From a phage, in sequence record PZ452594.1: DNA of 64,000 nucleotides. The stretch is one strand, 5' to 3'. The position numbers and the translations under genes are program-made. The notes under the pieces were generated by a model, which searched no databases, was not told where the DNA came from, and saw only the letters and a program-made list of their open reading frames with translations. Within the stretch, counting starts at the first letter, position 1; every line of letters starts with the position of its first letter. This document shows, piece by piece, positions 2,523 to 32,322 of the stretch.

Positions 2523-3086
2523 TTACCATTCCAATGCTAGTTTTTTGAGTTGTTTCTGTTCTTTTACGTTCTTAGTCACTTCTTTCAAAAAATCATCCGT
2601 GACTAAACCTTTTAGTTCTTTTAATACTAAAGGAAGTTTTCCATTTTTAGTAAGAATTGATTTATAGTTAATTGCATCATTTGTATTAACTTGATACCGC
2701 TTAGCAAGTAACTTAATAATCAATACTTCGGTGGAATCTTCAACCAGTTTTGCCCATTTACCATATCTTTTACCACGAGGAACAGCAGCCATCAGATAAT
2801 TAAAATGGGCTTCATCGCTTAATCCTGATCCAATTAAATTCATAGCATATACAGCTGGCATGCACTCTGGAAATTGTGATAATGCATTCTCAACCATGAA
2901 TTTTGAATAATCTTTTTGAACAATAGAGCATTTAGTTTTATTATTAATAGCTCCAATTATTTCAAAAAACTCATTTTCAGCTTTTTCTTTAAAAGAATCA
3001 GCAGCGGATTGGACAGCTGTCCAATCTTTTGAATACCAAGCAACTTGATGCTCGTTTAATTGAATATCATCTTGAAATAAGCTCAT
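2523..3086 (-). CDS. 62: clamp loader small subunit gp62 (187 aa)
   Basis: [22 protein letters not shown]...; size and position match T4 gp62. Confidence 0.9.
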
Positions 3087-4098: not shown

Positions 4099-4785
4099 TT
4101 AAAAATCGTGGGTAGAATCAGCTTCAAGAGCTACTACATAATTCGCGTGTTCACCTTCAAATTTAGCAGCACCTTGTTTACCTTTTGCCCAGAGCAGAAG
4201 TTTATAATTTCCTGGTTGCATTTTCATATTTGCCATATTGATAATGAAATTAAATGTATTTTCACCATCATAATCACCAAGAGTCAAAGAATATTTAACA
4301 CGGGTCAAAGCAGAATCTTCCACTTTATTAAAACCGTTAATTACGATTTTACCTTCTTTTACTGTGATAGCAATTGTATCAATCTGCAGACCGCGAGATA
4401 CACGCAACAGCTGCTGAAGGTCTTCAGCTTTAATTTCAGTAACAACAGATGCTACCGGGAATGGAATTGGTTTATTAGGAGCAACTACTGTACTCGGATC
4501 GGCTGCTGGCCAAAAAATTGTTGAACGAGCATCAGCAATTTTAATATTTCCATCTTCTGACTGGGAAATTTCTGCATCATCATTAACTAGGGACAGAATA
4601 CCGAGAAAACCGTTCAAATCGTAAATCGCTACATCAAAATCAATAGTGTCAGAAATATTTGCTTCTGCATAAGTTGTACCATTAACTGCGCGAGTCATAA
4701 TAAATTGACCGGATTTAAGCATAATACCAGAGTTAATAGTAGCGAAATTTTTAAGCAGAGCAGTAGTATCTTTAGACAGTTTCAT
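4099..4785 (-). CDS. 45: sliding clamp gp45 (228 aa)
   Basis: MKLSKDTTALLKNFATINSGIMLKSGQFIMTRAVNG... matches T4 gp45. Confidence 0.9.
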   Translation of the reverse strand: MKLSKDTTALLKNFATINSGIMLKSGQFIMTRAVNGTTYAEANISDTIDFDVAIYDLNGFLGILSLVNDDAEISQSEDGNIKIADARSTIFWPAADPSTVVAPNKPIPFPVASVVTEIKAEDLQQLLRVSRGLQIDTIAITVKEGKIVINGFNKVEDSALTRVKYSLTLGDYDGENTFNFIINMANMKMQPGNYKLLLWAKGKQGAAKFEGEHANYVVALEADSTHDF

Positions 4786-4840
4786 GTAATTTCCTTCAAT
4801 TCAAATGAGATTTAATTTTATAACTAATTTAATAAAGCAA

Positions 4841-5230
4841 TTAACGATTAAAATCAGCCGCAATTGTTTCCGCAACAATTTGAGCAGCAACAATTAGACG
4901 TTCATCTGCATTACCGCAATAATCATCTTCAAGGCGTTCACCGCATGAAGTCATAATAAATTTAGCACCGGCGTTTAGAGATTCTGTAGTATGTTTGCGC
5001 ATTAGTTCAATCCATTTATTACTTACTTCACGATCGATAGCTTCATAATACGCATGACGAGCAGGTGCAGATTTAATTTTATTCTGAATAACTTCCATTG
5101 CGTTATCAGAAAGAGACAAAACCCATGCTCGACGAATTTTATTTTGGTTTTGTGGATTTGATTCAGAACGCACGTGTTTTGGCTGAATATCTTTTACGTC
5201 AACAGTATAATTCACAGTAATTTTAGTCAT
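4841..5230 (-). CDS. rpbA: RNA polymerase binding protein RpbA (129 aa)
   Basis: [31 protein letters not shown]...; size and position as T4 rpbA. Confidence 0.8.
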
Positions 5231-5239
5231 AATACACCT

Positions 5240-5483: not shown

Positions 5484-7166
5484 TTAAACCATTACAGTAA
5501 ATCGACCAACTTTCTTCATTTGAAGATGCTGACCATATTCTTGCGGGTCATGGTCTTTATGTGAAATTATAAAAACATTAGTGTTTTTCATTGAATTTAT
5601 AATATTAGCTACACCTTTAATACCTTCGGCATCAAATGACCCATCAAACACTTCATCGAGTATTAATGTACTAATACTAACACCAGATACAATAGAAGCA
5701 ATATCACGCCAAGTAAATAAAAGAGCAATATCAATTCGTGCCTTTTCACCTTCACTAAATGAAGCATAACTAAAATCTTCACGACCACGGGATTTAATTG
5801 TCTCATTAAATTCTTCATCTAATGTAAACACATAATCCGCTTCCATTATTTTAAGATAATGGTTAATCTGCTTATTAAATAATGGAATGTACTTTTTAAT
5901 AATAGCACCTTTAATACCAGAATCTTTGAGCATATCAGTCAAAATTCCTCGGTGGTATTTTTCCATTACTAAATTAGTTTTTGTCTTAACAATTTTATCA
6001 AGTTCTTCTTGAAGCAGTGCTATTTCATCGGCATGGTCAATAAACTCAGATGATGCTTTTTCTATAGCCGCTTTAACCTTTTTAGCTTTATCTACCGTCG
6101 TGATTAGAGATTGCTTTTTATTGCGAATATCATTTGCCAACGACTGTTGGGTTTTAATATTATCTCGGTATTCATCAACAAGAACTTTTAAATTATCACG
6201 ATGTGTTGAAAGCTGTTCAAATGAATGTGTGCATTCAGAAACTTTATCTTTAATTTTAGAAACAACTTTATCACCGGAACTTAATTGTGACAAACAGGTT
6301 GGGCATAATCCACCTTCGTGATACATATTAATGACTTTATTATACGAGTCAATTTTTGATTTAATTAAAACTGCTTCTTGACCGATTTTATTAAATGCAT
6401 CAGTCGGATCTTCGTCTAAAACAATATTAACTAATCTTTCATTAGCTTCTTCTATTTCCGATTTTAGCGTTCTAGCTTCTTTTGCCAAATCATCATACAT
6501 ATTCTGCAAACGAGTAAGATTGTCACCCGTTAATTTTTTCTGGCGTTCAACGTTATCATTATATATTTTAATTTGTTGGATAATACTATCTTTTTTAACA
6601 TCAAGCACTTGGTTTTGTGAATTTAATTCACGTATTAGTGCTTTATTAAGCTTATCCATTTCAGCTAATGTTCCTACCTCGAGCAGGTCTTCCACAAGCT
6701 TTCTTCGCGCAGGGGTCGACAAACCCATGAAAGGGGTATACCCTGCTGTACCAAGGACAACAATCTGCTTGAAACTGGCATATGACATTCCGATAAGCTG
6801 TTCAAATTCTGCTTGGAAATCTTTACTGCTGGCAGATTCATTAAGACGTGTACCGTTAACGGTGATTTCGAAAACGTTTGGTTTTTGTCCTCTTTTGATA
6901 TAGTACTTTTTCTCATCATATTCCATCCACAGTTCAACTAAAAGTTCTTTCTTATTTGTGCTGTTTATTAATTGACCTTTCTTTACATCACGAAATGGCT
7001 TACCAAAAAGCCCAAATGTGATGGCTTCTAACATAGTAGACTTACCACCGCCATTTCGTCCAGTAATAAGAGTTTTTTGAACCTTATCTAATTGAATGTC
7101 AACTCCATTTTGACCAACTGACATTATATTTTTATATTTTACTCTATTAAGTTTAAATGATTTCAT
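5484..7166 (-). CDS. 46: recombination endonuclease subunit gp46 (SbcC/Rad50-like, 560 aa)
   Basis: N-terminal Walker A GRNGGGKST, long coiled coil, C-terminal signature region. Confidence 0.9.
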   Translation of the reverse strand: MKSFKLNRVKYKNIMSVGQNGVDIQLDKVQKTLITGRNGGGKSTMLEAITFGLFGKPFRDVKKGQLINSTNKKELLVELWMEYDEKKYYIKRGQKPNVFEITVNGTRLNESASSKDFQAEFEQLIGMSYASFKQIVVLGTAGYTPFMGLSTPARRKLVEDLLEVGTLAEMDKLNKALIRELNSQNQVLDVKKDSIIQQIKIYNDNVERQKKLTGDNLTRLQNMYDDLAKEARTLKSEIEEANERLVNIVLDEDPTDAFNKIGQEAVLIKSKIDSYNKVINMYHEGGLCPTCLSQLSSGDKVVSKIKDKVSECTHSFEQLSTHRDNLKVLVDEYRDNIKTQQSLANDIRNKKQSLITTVDKAKKVKAAIEKASSEFIDHADEIALLQEELDKIVKTKTNLVMEKYHRGILTDMLKDSGIKGAIIKKYIPLFNKQINHYLKIMEADYVFTLDEEFNETIKSRGREDFSYASFSEGEKARIDIALLFTWRDIASIVSGVSISTLILDEVFDGSFDAEGIKGVANIINSMKNTNVFIISHKDHDPQEYGQHLQMKKVGRFTVMV

Positions 7167-7181
7167 TTTGTATCCAATTGT

Positions 7182-8036
7182 TCACAATGAAGAAAATTCT
7201 TTAACTAAAGCCTGTAATGAAGCCTCTATTGGATATCCATTCTTAACTAACATTTTCCTAAACATTACATGTTTAGGACGATTATATGATATCCACAATT
7301 CATACAATTTATCTTTATTATCCCAATGATAGCCTTTTCGTCGAGATGCTATATGAGCTTTTCTAATCTCCGGATTTTTCCAACTAGCAGCTACTGAATT
7401 TGATATAGCTATTTTATATTCAGGTTTTGATAAAGCAGCACGAACAGCCTTTTGGTGTTTAATTTTATTTTCTTCGTTATTAAACCATTCCCTTGAAGCC
7501 ATTGAAATTTTTTGTTTTGTTTTAAAATTATTTAATCTTTCTTTATTATCTTTCCTATTTTTTGCTACTGAAAAATATTTTAATGCCCTTTCTCTAGCAG
7601 CATTTCTATTTTGCGGATTTGAATAATACTGTTGAAGCCTTTTTGATATTGTGTCACTTACATCTTGTTTTATAAAACTATATTCAGCAGCTATTAAATC
7701 AACTTCGGCTAAAGATAAATTTTTATATGTTTTTCCTGACATCATTCTATTTAAAGCATTTAACATTTTTCCATTTTTACCTTTTGCTAATAAGAAGTGT
7801 GCTTTAAAATGATTAAAATGACTTAAATTAACTAAATTCCATGTAGATTTTAAATATTCAGGAAATATTGATTTAGGAAGCACGTGGTGTGCTTCCGTTT
7901 TACCTGGAGTTTTAACAGTTGAATTCACAGAAATAAAATTAATGTAAGACTTGGCGTCTTCTTCACTCAACGCTAATTTTTCAACTAATTCCTTTATTAA
8001 AAATTCATCATTAATGTCAAGTTTAAAATTCTTCAC
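7182..8036 (-). CDS. HNH homing endonuclease-like protein (284 aa) with C-terminal DNA-binding repeats
   Basis: HNH motif EAHHVLPKS...NLVNLSHFNHFKAH; repeated SxxW.NPE.R.AH units; GTG start at 8034-8036. Confidence 0.6.
   Translation of the reverse strand: MKNFKLDINDEFLIKELVEKLALSEEDAKSYINFISVNSTVKTPGKTEAHHVLPKSIFPEYLKSTWNLVNLSHFNHFKAHFLLAKGKNGKMLNALNRMMSGKTYKNLSLAEVDLIAAEYSFIKQDVSDTISKRLQQYYSNPQNRNAARERALKYFSVAKNRKDNKERLNNFKTKQKISMASREWFNNEENKIKHQKAVRAALSKPEYKIAISNSVAASWKNPEIRKAHIASRRKGYHWDNKDKLYELWISYNRPKHVMFRKMLVKNGYPIEASLQALVKEFSSL
8003..8020. repeat. 18-nt direct repeat copy 1 (attcatcattaatgtcaa)
   Basis: identical copy at 8206-8223; both lie at the 5' ends of adjacent ORFs. Confidence 0.8.
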
Positions 8037-25335: not shown

Positions 25336-26304
25336 TTATTTCAGAAGAGTAACCTCAGCGATTTCTTCCCAACCGTTTTTGTCGGTCATAATAAAGTCAG
25401 CAAGATAAAGAGCAGTACGCAGTGAAACATTACGTAAACGATTAACATTGACTTTCATCCATGATAATGCTTTATAAGTTTCTTCATCAGAAAGACCGCG
25501 CTTTTGCATCATGTCAGTTGAAAGAATAACATCTTCAACCCTGACCATAATTTCTTCATTAGTGTGAACACCCAAATCCAAATAAACTGAGCGGGACACT
25601 AATGCTTGTAAATGTGGAGCAAGTTTAGTACCACGGTCTAATTCGCGGTCAATGTCAACGTTTGTGATAAAAACAATCGTTCCTTTAAATTCAAACTCAC
25701 GCTCAATGCCTTTTTCTTCTAAGTAAGAAGATGCGGTGCTCCAGCAGACTTTACGGGTCTCTCCAGTGTCCAGAGCAGCTTTCAGAAGATTAAGAATGTC
25801 CATATCAGAGAAAACATCCACATCATCAATCAAAAGGACAGAATTCTCTTCACGATTATTCCAAAGCTGCTCATAAAGACCAATACCAGAGATTTTACCA
25901 TTAATGCTTTTATATTCAATGTATCCAATATCATTTGCTTTATTTAAAGCTTTATCTAAAGAATACGTTTTACCAATACCTGCTGCACCAGAGATAATTA
26001 ATGAACGAATGTTTCCGTTAATAATACCATTCGTCATCATTCCCATAACATTAAATCTTTTATTAATGCGGGTTTTCATATCTTCATACGATTCTTTAAC
26101 TTCTTCAACTTTTACACCATCATATGAAATGTCTGATTTGTAAACCCAAACACCGCGACGTTTACCGTCAATTTCAACAAAAACTTTACCATCTCCTTGT
26201 GCATCTACCGGAGCATTATCTGGGAACCATTCGCCTAAGAGCTCAAAAGTTCCAGAAATTTCTTTACCGAAGTAGATACCCTTATTGATAGTTACAGTTT
26301 TCAT
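25336..26304 (-). CDS. P-loop ATPase (AAA-type, 322 aa)
   Basis: Walker A GAAGIGKT, Walker B VLLIDDVD. Confidence 0.55.
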   Translation of the reverse strand: MKTVTINKGIYFGKEISGTFELLGEWFPDNAPVDAQGDGKVFVEIDGKRRGVWVYKSDISYDGVKVEEVKESYEDMKTRINKRFNVMGMMTNGIINGNIRSLIISGAAGIGKTYSLDKALNKANDIGYIEYKSINGKISGIGLYEQLWNNREENSVLLIDDVDVFSDMDILNLLKAALDTGETRKVCWSTASSYLEEKGIEREFEFKGTIVFITNVDIDRELDRGTKLAPHLQALVSRSVYLDLGVHTNEEIMVRVEDVILSTDMMQKRGLSDEETYKALSWMKVNVNRLRNVSLRTALYLADFIMTDKNGWEEIAEVTLLK

Positions 26305-26361: not shown

Positions 26362-26562
26362 TTATTTTGACATTTCTTCGATGTCACGACGATACCCGTC
26401 ACGAACTTCACGAAGAGCTTCAAGGCCACACATAGGCTCGATACCAGTAATGTGAACTTGATTAATCTGATACTCTACATCTTCTAACTGAGCGAAAACA
26501 TAACGACGTTCAGCTGCACAACCAGATTTAGCTTTACCGAAACGTTTATTCAAAGTAGTCAT
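26362..26562 (-). CDS. hypothetical protein (66 aa)
   Basis: ORF track; early promoter directly upstream. Confidence 0.45.
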   Translation of the reverse strand: MTTLNKRFGKAKSGCAAERRYVFAQLEDVEYQINQVHITGIEPMCGLEALREVRDGYRRDIEEMSK

Positions 26563-26635: not shown

Positions 26636-26661
26636 TGTGAAAAAATTTTTGAAATAAAAAA

Positions 26662-26679
26662 GGGAGCCCGAAGGCTCCC
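26662..26679 (-). terminator. intrinsic terminator GGGAGCCUUCGGGCUCCC + U6
   Basis: plus gggagcccgaaggctccc preceded by a/t run; directly 3' of the 337-aa ORF. Confidence 0.6.
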
Positions 26680-26681
26680 TA

Positions 26682-27695
26682 TCATTTATAATAACTTCGG
26701 TGGTTTTCAAGATAGACCTTCTCAAGGAAGTCATCCCAGAAACTCATGTCTACTTTTTGCTGCATACCGTTCTTAGAAGCTTCAGTAGATGCTGCTTCTA
26801 CTTGATCAACCACATCTTCCAAAAACTCTTGAACTGTTTTAAATGGATGTTTACCCAACTTCACGTCGAGAATAAATGGAGCATCTTGGAGTGGATAAAT
26901 CAAGTCGCCAGTTTTGTAAATTTCCAATAGTTGAAGTCCACCACGACAAGCATGACTTAGTGCTTTCCAATCAATACCTTCATTAGCTTCGGCTTTACGA
27001 GCACGTTCACCATATTCAGCATCTAATTTGTTCAGTGACTGCTTAAGCTCAATAAGAGAAAGTGTTGTCTGATATTTACGACCCAACACAGTGTAGAACG
27101 TTTGCGGGCCTGTTTTCTCGTGATTATGGAACACCCATTCACAGAATTCGTTTTCTGGAAGACGATGCTTAATATCTTCAACTTTAGTGCGACGCTGCTT
27201 AATAGAACCATCTTCTTGGTAATCAATCCACTGCTCAGGAATTTGATTAACTACTTTCAATACATCACGTAATGCAGCCAAACGAGAACCCTTGACACCG
27301 TATTTAGAAGCTTGCTTGCGAACATATCCTAAATAGGATTTCATGTTAGTCGTATAAAAACGAGAACGGTTGTCTTGAATAAACTTCCACACGTCAGGCA
27401 AATCAGATTTAACCACTAGTTCAGGTGGAGTGTGAAGCATATCCAATGCTACAGTTTCACCATCTGCTGCTAATTTAAAGAAATATTTAAGACTGTATAG
27501 TTCATGGTCAATATCATCTTTAGTGTTTTTAGATGATGTGTTGTTGGTATTTTTACTCATATGCTCTTTAACATTTCCGATAAGAATATCGCGAGCAGGA
27601 GGAACAAAGATTTCTTTAAAATCTACATCAGATTCTGGGGTAGAAGTTCCATAAAGATGACTACCAAAATAGCTTTTCATTACTGTTTTCATCAT
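26682..27695 (-). CDS. Pol-beta-superfamily nucleotidyltransferase-like protein (337 aa)
   Basis: N-terminal signature FGSHLYGTSTPESDVDF (GS, ~10 residues, DxD). Confidence 0.55.
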   Translation of the reverse strand: MMKTVMKSYFGSHLYGTSTPESDVDFKEIFVPPARDILIGNVKEHMSKNTNNTSSKNTKDDIDHELYSLKYFFKLAADGETVALDMLHTPPELVVKSDLPDVWKFIQDNRSRFYTTNMKSYLGYVRKQASKYGVKGSRLAALRDVLKVVNQIPEQWIDYQEDGSIKQRRTKVEDIKHRLPENEFCEWVFHNHEKTGPQTFYTVLGRKYQTTLSLIELKQSLNKLDAEYGERARKAEANEGIDWKALSHACRGGLQLLEIYKTGDLIYPLQDAPFILDVKLGKHPFKTVQEFLEDVVDQVEAASTEASKNGMQQKVDMSFWDDFLEKVYLENHRSYYK

Positions 27696-28153
27696 TCAGC
27701 CTTATATTCAATAACAGGACATACTTTAGCTTTACGCGCTTTTAAAAATTCAACGATAACCGATTTCTTGGGTTGAATAGGAGGTAAACCTTTATACGCC
27801 CTATCAATATTTTCTACGTGTAAAGCATAATCCTTTTTCCATTTATAATCTTTATATTTTTCACGCAAATGTGCAGGAATAACAAATGAACCGATAATAA
27901 GTAAAACAACCAAAATCGCAAGTATAAATGCTGATGGAAGCAAAGTCCATAAACTACCAAAAATAATCCAACGCTGTAGGCTTTCTGCACAAATAATTGT
28001 TAGCCCTACGAGTATAGCACATCCAAAAATAGAAACGAAAAATGTAGGAATGGCAATAGACCAAAAATATGCGCATAGTGTCTTAGGTCGTTGCCATTCA
28101 TCGTTAAACAATTTGAATAATTTATAGTGCCAAGAGTTTTCATTAATAATCAT
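27692..28153 (-). CDS. polytopic membrane protein (153 aa)
   Basis: several hydrophobic helices (AYFWSIAIPTFFVSIFGCAILVGLTII; LLPSAFILAILVVLLIIGSFVI). Confidence 0.45.
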   Translation of the reverse strand: MIINENSWHYKLFKLFNDEWQRPKTLCAYFWSIAIPTFFVSIFGCAILVGLTIICAESLQRWIIFGSLWTLLPSAFILAILVVLLIIGSFVIPAHLREKYKDYKWKKDYALHVENIDRAYKGLPPIQPKKSVIVEFLKARKAKVCPVIEYKAE

Positions 28154-28155
28154 AA

Positions 28156-28677
28156 TTATACTTTCATTGAAGGTGTAACAGTTGTTAAATACTTAATCAT
28201 AGCTTCAGCTTCTGATTTTGATAATGAAATTTCTCCACTGTTTTGACGAATAGAAATAAAATCCGGATGACGGTCACCACCAGCTTTTAAAACACACATA
28301 TAAGTATCAACTTCGCCTTCAATATTTGAAATGATTGAAGCAGTTCCACATGAATGCGGTTTTTGATAAATCAACACAGCTTTTCTTCCGCCATTTGACT
28401 GTTCATAGGCTTTTAATACATCAAACAAATCAGTTCTTTTATCAATAGCTAAAATGTTATTTTCATCTTCAATGTTAAATCCTTCGGATACTTCATAAAG
28501 TGTTACCCATAAATCACCAATGTCAATAACAGCATTTACTTTTCCACGGCTTTCAAGAGTATGACAAATTTTCTTGATTTCGTCATAACTCATTTTAATA
28601 ATATCATCTCCTTGACTAAGAAAGATGTCATTTTTAAATTCAACACGAATTAAACCGCTTTCACTTGAAATAAACAT
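28156..28677 (-). CDS. hypothetical acidic protein (173 aa); tandem paralogue A
   Basis: C-terminus KSEAEAMIKYLTTVTPSMKV resembles neighbour. Confidence 0.45.
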   Translation of the reverse strand: MFISSESGLIRVEFKNDIFLSQGDDIIKMSYDEIKKICHTLESRGKVNAVIDIGDLWVTLYEVSEGFNIEDENNILAIDKRTDLFDVLKAYEQSNGGRKAVLIYQKPHSCGTASIISNIEGEVDTYMCVLKAGGDRHPDFISIRQNSGEISLSKSEAEAMIKYLTTVTPSMKV

Positions 28678-28683
28678 ATTTCC

Positions 28684-29238
28684 TCACTTTGAAATCATAG
28701 TTGGAATAACAGAATCAAGATAAGTCTTTAGTGCAATAGCTTCGTCTTTGGTAAATGTGACAATATGTGCTCGAGAATCATCAATTTGGCGAACAAGTAC
28801 GACATCGCCATCTTCATAAGAAGTCTTGACATCCAAAGTCGTAGTATAATTTGCAGCTACTGGATTAATAATGCTAGCACCGCGATCTTTAGCCCATTGA
28901 AGTTTAGCCTTTTCGGGTGTTTCGACTGTTTCAGATTCCAAGAATTCTTTCACCTTGGCAACGAATGTTGCCCAATTGTTGATAGAAAGACACATAAATT
29001 CAGTTTCAATATTACCGCCGTAAAGGCCACGATAAAAACGAACTTGGAGGTCGCCTGTAATATTAGTTACACCGGTAACTCCTGAGGGAGCATAAGATAA
29101 AATCGCAGCCAGTTCCATAGGAAGAATAGTAATACTATCGTCTTCCTGCGTCAGAACGTATACATTATCACGTTTTTCGATAACCAGGTCACCGAACAAA
29201 TCAGTTGTTTCAATTACAGCTTTCATATTATTTACCAA
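28684..29238 (-). CDS. hypothetical acidic protein (184 aa); tandem paralogue B
   Basis: C-terminus KDEAIALKTYLDSVIPTMISK. Confidence 0.45.
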   Translation of the reverse strand: MVNNMKAVIETTDLFGDLVIEKRDNVYVLTQEDDSITILPMELAAILSYAPSGVTGVTNITGDLQVRFYRGLYGGNIETEFMCLSINNWATFVAKVKEFLESETVETPEKAKLQWAKDRGASIINPVAANYTTTLDVKTSYEDGDVVLVRQIDDSRAHIVTFTKDEAIALKTYLDSVIPTMISK

Positions 29239-29413
29239 TTAAAGTTTCAATATAAGAATCAAGATTTACTTTAGCTTCTTCCATAAGAGTTTTGTATTTA
29301 ATCTTGTTAGCATGTCCGGAGAAAGCTGATTCATCAATAATTGTTGATGTATGAACAGCTCTACTATACGTCTCAATTAATTCTCTTAATTTAAAAGCCT
29401 GCTCACTCGTCAT
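29228..29413 (-). CDS. small helical protein (61 aa); small-paralogue family
   Basis: MTSEQAFKLRELIETYSRAV... shared N-terminal pattern M-x-x-(R/E)EQ-x-x-K-(I/L). Confidence 0.4.
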   Translation of the reverse strand: MTSEQAFKLRELIETYSRAVHTSTIIDESAFSGHANKIKYKTLMEEAKVNLDSYIETLIGK

Positions 29414-29543
29414 TACATACTCCTTTGAATAATATCAATAATGTTATTCACCAAATTATAAGTAAACATTGGGTAATTATATTGAATCATCACATACACA
29501 ACAAACAAAACTTTCATTCTCTTCTCCTTGGCAGTTGACAAGA

Positions 29544-29579
29544 TTACTATACCATAACCTTGCCAACTTGTAAACCATT
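29544..29579 (-). promoter_or_regulatory. early promoter (GTTTAC, 18 nt, TATAGT)
   Basis: sense GTTTACAAGTTGGCAAGGTTATGGTATAGT. Confidence 0.5.
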
Positions 29580-29751
29580 AAATGACGTTTTCAATAAAAT
29601 TCTGAAGCTTTGTGTGAGCATCAACCATGATTTTCAATTCTTCTTTGGCGAAAGCTATACCTCTTTCCCGAGAAGAACACTCATAGTCAGAAACTGCATT
29701 AGCATATTCTTCAATTAGCTTCATTAAAAACATCTGCTTTTCAGTTTTCAT
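29578..29751 (-). CDS. small helical protein (56 aa); small-paralogue family
   Basis: hand-translated: MKTEKQMFLMKLIEEYANAVSDYECSSRERGIAFAKEELKIMVDAHTKLQNFIENVI; below track size cutoff. Confidence 0.35.
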   Translation of the reverse strand: MKTEKQMFLMKLIEEYANAVSDYECSSRERGIAFAKEELKIMVDAHTKLQNFIENVI

Positions 29752-29935
29752 TATTCCACCTAATCATTTCAAGATATTGAACTAACTTAGCTTTGGATTT
29801 ATCCAAATCCTTTTTAGCTGCTTCTATACCGTCGTATGAATATCCTTCACAATGCTCAACTGCTAATTGGTATGAATCTATTTCAATATCACGTGCTAAT
29901 TTAATGATTTTTTCAAACTGTTCACGTGTTAGCAT
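29741..29935 (-). CDS. small helical protein (64 aa); small-paralogue family
   Basis: MLTREQFEKIIKLARDIEID... Confidence 0.4.
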   Translation of the reverse strand: MLTREQFEKIIKLARDIEIDSYQLAVEHCEGYSYDGIEAAKKDLDKSKAKLVQYLEMIRWNNEN

Positions 29936-29937
29936 AC

Positions 29938-30177
29938 TTAAACTCTCGTATTATGATCGATAATTTCATCAAGAAACATATCTAACGCTTCTAAAGCATT
30001 ATCAACTTTAGCTTCAAGTTCATCAATGCCTTTATTTGCAATGCCTGACGAAAACCAAGCAAAGTCACTAAGTTCCTCGTCTGCTTTACGAATTAAAGCT
30101 ACCAATTCTTTAATCTTATCCGCTTGTTCGATACTAATCATTATTCCACCACATATGAAAGAGAGAATATTGCACAC
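29938..30177 (-). CDS. small helical protein (79 aa); small-paralogue family
   Basis: ...[24 protein letters not shown]... Confidence 0.4.
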
Positions 30178-30402: not shown

Positions 30403-30420
30403 AGTCTCCCGAAGGAGACT
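30403..30420 (-). terminator. intrinsic terminator AGUCUCC-UUCG-GGAGACU + U6
   Basis: plus agtctcccgaaggagact preceded by a-run; directly 3' of the ORF ending at 30425. Confidence 0.6.
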
Positions 30421-31951: not shown

Positions 31952-32140
31952 TTAGTCCTTAGTTAAATTTTCTAAATATGTTTCTAAATCATTTTCAGCT
32001 TTATCGATAGATTTTACTAATTCGTAATATGTTTCGGCATCTCCATAATCAGAAGATAATTCAAAAGACAAATCCTTTTCTAAACTAATAATTTCACCAA
32101 CTAAAAATAATATTTCGTTCTTTTGTTCGCGAGTAATCAT
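31952..32140 (-). CDS. small helical protein (62 aa); small-paralogue family
   Basis: MITREQKNEILFLVGEIISLEKDL... Confidence 0.4.
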   Translation of the reverse strand: MITREQKNEILFLVGEIISLEKDLSFELSSDYGDAETYYELVKSIDKAENDLETYLENLTKD

Positions 32141-32322
32141 AAAGAATTTATATAATCAATGAGTTCTTGTTCTTTATTATCGAATTCTTTAGAAAGTTCT
32201 TCGTATTCATTTGCATTAAAAGGACCGCATTCATCACAAACTTTTTCCAATTCACTGTTTTTATCCATAACTTCGTGGATAAGAGAAAAGAGTTTGTCTT
32301 TTTGTTCTTTGCTTAAACTCAT
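32137..32322 (-). CDS. small helical protein (61 aa); small-paralogue family
   Basis: MSLSKEQKDKLFSLIHEVMDKNSELEKVCDECG... Confidence 0.4.
   Translation of the reverse strand: MSLSKEQKDKLFSLIHEVMDKNSELEKVCDECGPFNANEYEELSKEFDNKEQELIDYINSL

Follow-up and report, generated by a model that had tools for sequence, protein, structure and literature searches.

A genome that keeps the T4 gene order around nrdC.11 carries two adjacent genes for acidic proteins where T4 has a single one, mobD.1, which raises the question of how the pair arose and what its products might do. The sequence comes from a Tequatrovirus (T4-like phage) genome, record PZ452594.1, and was analysed as a stretch of 64,000 nt, referred to below as the window. 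The 1.9 kb around the pair are 97.5-98.4% identical to the 25 best-matching phage genomes (Tequatrovirus, e.g. e11/2, QOTSP and JK1) and match 519 phage records in all; near the pair the T4 order of tk, rI.1, rI, rI.-1, mobD.5 to mobD.2, the pair, nrdC.11 and nrdC.10 is kept, all on the minus strand. The two genes, here called A and B, are ordinary, catalogued and uncharacterised accessory genes of the T4 family, with near-identical or identical genes in hundreds of sequenced T4-like phages and a place already in Pfam and PHROG families. What is new, as far as our searches show, is the reading of their products as three-module PC4/PUR-like proteins, the argument from their acidity, the conserved grouping of these genes in a triad with RlaP and a membrane protein, and the history of the locus, including a stub of gene A in T4.

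The coordinates that an earlier note on this DNA gave for gene A are exact. For gene B it gave 28684..29238, which is indeed the maximal ORF on the minus strand, opening at a TTG; the start is most likely the ATG at 29226, with the TTG at 29238 probably unused, since this ATG lies only 1 nt past the stop of the upstream 61-aa DUF7438 gene, is the annotated start in relatives (a 543-nt CDS) and fits the N-termini of homologues. The B protein is 100% identical to database proteins. Both products are acidic, as had been claimed, with a pI of 4.91 and a net charge of -8 for A and a pI of 4.56 and a net charge of -10 for B. The features of the locus are collected in Table 1.

Table 1. Features of the A/B locus and of related loci; coordinates are those of the window unless another sequence is named
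Feature	Sequence	Coordinates	Strand	Basis or remark
Terminator-like hairpin 3' of rI.-1	Window	30420..30403	-	Terminator scan
Promoter-like site, sigma-70/T4-early type	Window	29546..29574	-	TTTACA, 17 nt, TG-TATAGT; 10/12 consensus matches
mobD.2, 34 aa, promoter-proximal first gene of the inferred unit	Window	29413..29517	-	e11/2 annotation transferred by coordinate offset; sequence
DUF7438 gene, 61 aa, directly upstream of B	Window	29228..29413	-	Pfam DUF7438, E 2.6e-15; sequence
Gene B, 180-aa acidic counterpart of T4 mobD.1/Y05I	Window	28684..29226	-	'mobD.1a' in ime09
B N-domain	Window	~28918..29226	-	Gene B
B C-domain	Window	~28687..28917	-	Gene B
T4-conserved DNA segment, 89% identity	Window	28659..28818	.	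blastn vs T4; pairwise DNA alignment; both flanks unalignable
Gene A, 173-aa acidic MobD.1-family paralogue	Window	28156..28677	-	'mobD.1' in phage ime09, 'hypothetical protein' elsewhere
A N-domain (repeats I and II)	Window	~28387..28677	-	Gene A
A C-domain (repeat III)	Window	~28159..28386	-	Gene A
Predicted membrane protein, 153 aa	Window	27692..28153	-	Two long hydrophobic stretches in translation; PHROG 944 'membrane protein'
nrdC.11, RlaP-family (PF10127) Pol-beta nucleotidyltransferase, last gene of the inferred unit	Window	26682..27695	-	Pfam RlaP E 1.7e-11; 95% DNA identity to T4 nrdC.11
Intrinsic-terminator-like hairpin and T-run 3' of nrdC.11	Window	26661..26680	-	Terminator scan; terminator annotated at same place in e11/2
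nrdC.10	Window	25336..26304	-	Weak, below-threshold matches to AAA/STAND-type NTPase domains
DUF7438 genes	Window	29228..29413, 29578..29751, 29741..29935, 29938..30147, 31952..32140, 32137..32322	-	Pfam DUF7438
T4 stub of A (19 nt)	T4 NC_000866	13259..13283, aligned to window 28659..28683		SD, ATG, first five codons and one base of A; mobD cassette next
DUF7189 gene	JS98	2739..2936		Directly upstream of single-copy y05I-like gene
DUF7189 gene	T4-like sequence L007	5773..5988		Directly upstream of single-copy y05I-like gene
DUF7189 gene, 54-aa form	T4-like sequence L006	1543..1707		Directly upstream of single-copy y05I-like gene
Hybrid gene P0011	L022	3001-3540		Metagenomic Tequatrovirus contigs L022/L023/L024

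The view that A and B stem from a gene duplication followed by divergence is borne out by comparison of the two proteins. BLASTP aligns them at 29% identity over 173 columns, essentially their full length, with an E value of 2e-8, so that the similarity is significant from end to end, and in a phmmer search among the 355 window ORFs of at least 50 codons they match only each other (E about 1.5e-5). They have the same two-domain Pfam architecture: PF24449 (T4_y05I_N) is matched over profile positions 2-98/99 by A at E 3e-33 (114.7 bits) and by B at E 1e-31 (110 bits), against a gathering cut-off of 24.9, and PF24448 (T4_y05I_C) over the full profile at E 2e-22 (79.7 bits) and E 4e-17 (62.7 bits) respectively, against a cut-off of 27. 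Both also match PHROG 1502, and both occupy the syntenic position of the y05I family, upstream of nrdC.11 and downstream of mobD.2; a scan of the two against NCBIfam gave no matches. The genes are also adjacent, co-oriented and translationally coupled, and the comparisons establish them as true, diverged paralogues. There is no third copy among the 355 ORFs of the window, either by phmmer or with HMMs for repeat I, the C-domain (both described below) and DUF7189.

The C-termini of the two proteins do end alike, as the earlier note observed, albeit not in a manner peculiar to the pair: the motif K-x-E-A-x-x-(L/M)-x-x-Y-L-x-x-V-x-P-x-M is the hallmark of the whole family and its best conserved element, stand-alone proteins of 67-87 aa included. 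This family has few members: among 1.84 billion representative proteins, a profile search matched 29. Some of these are full-length, others are fragments or C-terminal domains that stand alone (67-87 aa), and one match is spurious, a repetitive, unrelated surface protein of 1572 aa with nine stretches resembling the C-domain; every family match with a traced source is from a T4-like phage or a T4-like contig. One could still suppose that A and B share this motif and little else, that their likeness is fortuitous, or that one of the two is no genuine gene or merely a pseudogene copy in decay, and the low identity of the pair and the fragmented copies seen in some phages would fit. We give this almost no credence and consider it already refuted by the significance of the full-length alignment, the end-to-end matches of both ORFs to both Pfam domains, the presence of both as intact ORFs under purifying selection in most relatives, and the detection of the T4 MobD.1 protein by mass spectrometry.

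T4 has a single copy, mobD.1 (181 aa), and between it and the next gene, nrdC.11, lies mobD, which encodes an HNH homing endonuclease. B is the positional counterpart of MobD.1, with 47% identity overall and identity throughout the last 19 residues, although their N-domains are only 40% identical and belong to different allele classes; A, at 26% identity to MobD.1, is the second, more divergent copy. T4 MobD.1 shares with the pair the two-domain architecture, the location between mobD.2 and nrdC.11, the orientation and presumably early expression. T4 mobD.1 corresponds to UniProt P39240 (Y05I_BPT4), for which a multi-omics study of T4 reports early RNA, early protein and mass-spectrometric intensities (PMC9697503 supplement), and the Pfam family is thus named after the T4 counterpart of B. 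Assignment of Y05I to nrdC.8 (175 aa) was considered and rejected, Y05I being MobD.1. A full-text literature search found mobD.1 only in a table of a homing-endonuclease review, and one for y05I returned nothing relevant.

A consensus scan places the best promoter-like site of the region, as a consensus match only, between the terminator-like hairpin of rI.-1 and mobD.2. It is likely that mobD.2, the 61-aa DUF7438 gene, B, A, the 153-aa membrane protein gene and nrdC.11 form a single unit from this site, ending at the hairpin 3' of nrdC.11. The genes are tightly coupled, given that the TGA stop of B overlaps GAGGAAA, the Shine-Dalgarno sequence of A, and that the ATG of the membrane protein gene is 2 nt past the stop of A. 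Between nrdC.11 and nrdC.10 there is a 201-nt ORF (26362..26562) in addition to the hairpin. The DUF7438 gene upstream of B is one of six paralogues of about 60 aa that lie within 3.1 kb on the minus strand, flanking tk and the mobD.x cluster, a tandem paralogue family much larger than the A/B pair; we see no support for the label 'helicase loader' that PHROG and RefSeq attach to one of them.

Comparison of the window with T4 by blastn reveals sharp mosaic boundaries that bear on the origin of the present arrangement. The DNA of nrdC.11 is 95% identical to that of T4 and the sequence from 29402 onward 96%, while neither the membrane protein gene, most of A, the 5' two-thirds of B nor the 61-aa gene has a T4 match; 28819..29401 finds no counterpart in T4 DNA, and T4 lacks the 61-aa gene at the corresponding position. 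Between these blocks lies the conserved segment 28659..28818, which extends from the 3' part of B across the intergenic Shine-Dalgarno sequence into the first 19 nt of A, and which marks a recombination boundary. Directly after the mobD.1 stop, T4 reads GAGGAAAT ATG TTT ATT TCA AGT G, in which the ribosome-binding site of A and its opening codons survive. In place of the A and membrane protein genes of the window, T4 thus has mobD and a 19-nt stub of A, and retention of this stub shows that the T4 arrangement is the derived one; it looks like a scar left when mobD replaced A together with the membrane protein gene.

The distribution of the two genes among relatives, which the earlier note had proposed to examine, shows a constant A and a variable B. 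A is present in 434 records at 91-99% identity and is under purifying selection (dN/dS 0.10-0.19). B matches 733 records and exists as at least three deeply divergent alleles. Identity is 90% or higher in 74 of the records and 60-80% in 152; the 507 records below 60% comprise T4-type alleles and other genera. Within the T4-type allele class dN/dS is 0.03-0.38; between classes identity falls to 44-51% and dN/dS is 0.4-0.5, albeit with saturated dS. In phage T6 an A close to that of the window (98%) occurs together with a B of the T4 kind (51%), which indicates that the alleles reassort. Other genera have single y05I-like copies, and in T2-type phages both copies are fragmented.

A neighbour-joining tree places the A clade (100% bootstrap) outside a group in which the B clade of Tequatrovirus (96%) is joined by the single-copy genes found in other genera; the key node that unites these two has 58% bootstrap. 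Taken at face value, this topology argues that the duplication is not recent and suggests that either the paralogy is old or A has evolved fast; the pair may derive from an old duplication with later loss, or from acquisition by recombination. One hybrid gene, the sole y05I-like gene at its locus, joins a T4-type MobD.1 (B-type) N-domain to an A-type C-terminus, probably through unequal crossover between the tandem paralogues, and its existence as a single gene indicates that the C-modules are interchangeable. The locus is a small, clear example of how T-even accessory regions evolve: it combines a pair of paralogues, exchange of alleles up to the edge of a conserved C-terminal segment, fusion of the pair into one hybrid gene, and a homing endonuclease gene that took the place of A and left a 19-nt scar.

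While the earlier note left the function of the pair as unknown, the question can be narrowed by the structure prediction that it called for. AlphaFold2 models of both proteins show a PC4/PUR/Whirly-like fold, and by predicted fold they belong to the PC4-like/PUR/Whirly structural superfamily. The model of A has a pLDDT of 73 (80-93 in the N-domain) and that of B 83.5 (85-94 in the N-domain), and the C-domains are only moderately confident, at about 50-70 in A and 64-87 in B. In both models the N-domain consists of two successive beta-beta-beta-beta-alpha units and the C-domain of a beta-hairpin, three strands and a helix. In the PC4-like fold, 'type I' domains are built from two repeats in one chain and 'type II' domains from two chains, proteins with a single beta-beta-beta-beta-alpha unit completing the fold by dimerisation; Pur-alpha is the sole combination of the two types known to the review of this fold (PMC7549692).

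The sequences of the modules agree with a threefold repeat. In hhalign comparisons based on the broader alignment (A3), repeat I and the C-domain are related with a probability of 92.5% and an E value of 5e-7, a signal that is significant with that alignment only and not with the narrow one (A2); the shared core is a hydrophobic strand, a Q-x-D-D turn, a strand and a helix. The profile of DUF7189, whose genes encode proteins of about 54-71 aa, is related in the same way to both, at 86% for repeat I and 88% for the C-domain, Pfam scans give the same faint cross-matches, and the DUF7189 HMM has three points of contact with A that share one register. These relationships make the C-domain look like a third, unpaired repeat. 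Repeat II is not significantly similar in sequence to either of these modules, and has diverged past the reach of sequence detection. Stand-alone C-domain genes (67-87 aa) occur at the equivalent locus of other T4-like phages, as would fit a module that completes its fold by pairing. No DUF7189 gene is present in the window, although in JS98, L006 and L007 one lies directly upstream of a single-copy y05I-like gene (Table 1), and DUF7189 proteins may act as free-standing modules that supply a partner to the unpaired repeat at the C-terminus.

The likeness to known proteins of this class is one of fold. Neither A nor B matches PurA (PF04845) in Pfam scans at E values up to 1, the family profile finds no Pur-alpha at E up to 10 among all PDB sequences, and searches of PDB sequences with A and B (phmmer) or with the family profile yield nothing meaningful, the matches being weak (e.g. 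splicing factor 38A, E 0.1); a fold search of BFVD returned family members only, without functional annotation. Compared with Pur-alpha (Drosophila 3k44; repeat III, 5fgo/8chw), to which there is no detectable sequence similarity, the phage proteins are strongly acidic, lack the conserved basic and aromatic residues that bind nucleic acid and have an extra N-terminal beta-hairpin in the C-module. Further structural matches are Whirly p24/StWhy2, the trypanosome proteins MRP1/MRP2, SsgB and two cyanobacterial proteins of unknown function. The Whirly, MRP1-MRP2 and PC4-like proteins (1l3a, 3n1h, 2gia, 4bhm, 6ycs, 5a4n, and the PC4 homologue of phage T5) have no sequence relationship to A and B; they bind single-stranded DNA or RNA on the face of the sheet, and their oligomeric states differ, Whirly being a tetramer and MRP a heterotetramer. 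These nucleic-acid-binding proteins are, as far as is known, basic. SsgA/SsgB (3cm1), actinomycete cell-division proteins without a known phage link, are likewise unrelated in sequence and differ in being single-domain and trimeric, and A and B have no known link to cell division. SsgB is nonetheless among the closest structural neighbours of A and B, and it recruits FtsZ with a PC4-like fold.

The fold suggests binding of single-stranded nucleic acid, as most of the structural neighbours do, but the character of the N-domains leads us to favour a protein ligand. Their net charge is -9 in both A and B, -6 in T4, and -12 in both JS98 and L006, with whole proteins reaching -24; the invariant or nearly invariant positions are G, E, Q, D, D, E, I, Y, G, N, I, E, K and S, and the family alignment shows no conserved basic residue on the N-domain strands. 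This argument is one from net charge and conservation, and the Pfam name 'putative transcription factor' points in the other direction. On our preferred reading, to which as a whole we give a little less than an even chance, A and B would be made early in infection from one transcription unit starting at the promoter-like site, each product consisting of three mutually homologous modules with the beta-beta-beta-beta-alpha order of the PC4/PUR/Whirly fold. Within the chain, modules I and II would pack to form a complete PC4-like 'type I' domain, whereas the C-terminal module, with its conserved K-x-E-A..Y-L..V-I-P-x-M helix, would be a half-domain in need of a second copy, so that homodimers or A:B heterodimers are predicted, as in Pur-alpha through repeat III. 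The fold would be used as it is in SsgB, for binding not naked nucleic acid but another protein, possibly a basic one from host or phage that itself binds nucleic acid, with the C-module as the constant part and the N-domain of B as a rapidly exchanged specificity module; the allelic diversity of B could, however, stem from recombination, the region being plastic, instead of from selection for new specificities. We further infer that A and B would be dispensable accessory factors, because the nrdC.11-mobD.3 fragment of T4 is lost in viable genome-reduced mutants (PMC9825161), the T2-type copies are fragmented, and A has apparently been replaced by mobD in T4. The predicted fold provides a structural handle on one of many unexplained T4 early genes, MobD.1 being predicted as an acidic three-repeat PC4/PUR-like protein.

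The neighbourhood of the pair suggests a concrete hypothesis of a different kind, namely that A and B are ssRNA- (or ssDNA-) binding cofactors of NrdC.11, holding damaged tRNA or other RNA ends or guiding the enzyme, with the membrane protein as a third component against host anticodon nucleases. RlaP extends the 3' ends of damaged RNA by one or two nucleotides (NMPs), an activity required to restore heavily damaged tRNA, and T4 NrdC.11 has been named as an RlaP (PMC12776372); RlaP has been predicted to act with phage RNA ligases (PMC7824862). The genes share one inferred unit that runs to a terminator-like hairpin, proteins with the PC4/PUR/Whirly fold classically bind ssDNA and ssRNA, and the order of a y05I-like gene (or stand-alone C-domain), a membrane protein, in some cases an extra gene, and RlaP is kept in Tequatrovirus, in Dhakavirus (JS98) and in remoter T4-like sequences (MT446392, MZ348424, OQ927978 and several metagenomic T4-like contigs), membrane-protein homologues following the y05I-like genes directly in JS98, L006 and L007. 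All of these examples are T4-like phages, however, in which gene order is conserved in any case, and the synteny may simply be inherited; moreover T4 has kept nrdC.11 without A and the membrane protein, bacterial RlaP is active alone in vitro, and the N-domain is strongly acidic, with a sheet devoid of conserved basic or aromatic residues except for one Tyr/Phe. We regard such a cofactor role as rather unlikely.

The membrane protein, for which there is no Pfam family, has conserved ends, with an N-terminal MIINxNSWH and a C-terminal ...KARKxKxCPxI kept from Tequatrovirus to distant T4-like contigs, and its homologues are always found just downstream of a y05I-like gene. The annotation of the T6 homologue as 'prohead core protein' is a misannotation.

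The Pfam designation 'y05I-like putative transcription factor' invites the further proposal that A and B are sequence-specific transcription factors acting at phage or host promoters in the early-to-middle switch, in keeping with early expression and with the roles of Pur-alpha, Whirly p24 and PC4 as transcription regulators or cofactors. The designation seems, however, to be based on fold resemblance only; the proteins are acidic, Pfam and NCBIfam scans disclosed no helix-turn-helix or other DNA-reading motif, and the genes are dispensable and often pseudogenised. That B alleles should be only 44-51% identical between genomes that are otherwise 90-98% identical would also be odd for a reader of conserved promoters, and we think a role of this kind highly improbable.

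A more elaborate reading can be framed, in which A and B heterodimerise by way of their PUR-like half-domains at the C-terminus, giving an acidic, Pur-alpha-like assembly of 'type I + type II', the conserved A and the membrane protein anchor a module acting with NrdC.11, and the hypervariable N-domain of B is an exchangeable specificity cassette directed against variable host immunity factors; it would then recognize or decoy anticodon nucleases or other RNA-targeting defences, or serve as a specificity factor in RNA repair. This is distinctly speculative and in our estimation improbable, although if true it would amount to a modular counter-defence system and to the first Pur-alpha-type architecture described outside the eukaryotes.

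Public annotations of this region call for some caution. The name 'molybdopterin-guanine dinucleotide biosynthesis protein MobD' on MobD.1- and mobD.4-type genes arises from confusion of gene names, 'integrase and recombinase' on the T6 B gene is an error of name or transfer, and the label 'thioredoxin' on nrdC.x genes is likewise an annotation error; systematic errors are present in NC_024125, NC_025419, NC_027979, AP018814 and other records. Finally, the distant T4-like phage OQ927978.1 has a segmental duplication (4652..5237 and 6873..7508) in which two pairs of Phage_tudor and stand-alone y05I_C genes lie upstream of RlaP, and the locus seems to be prone to duplication in several lineages.
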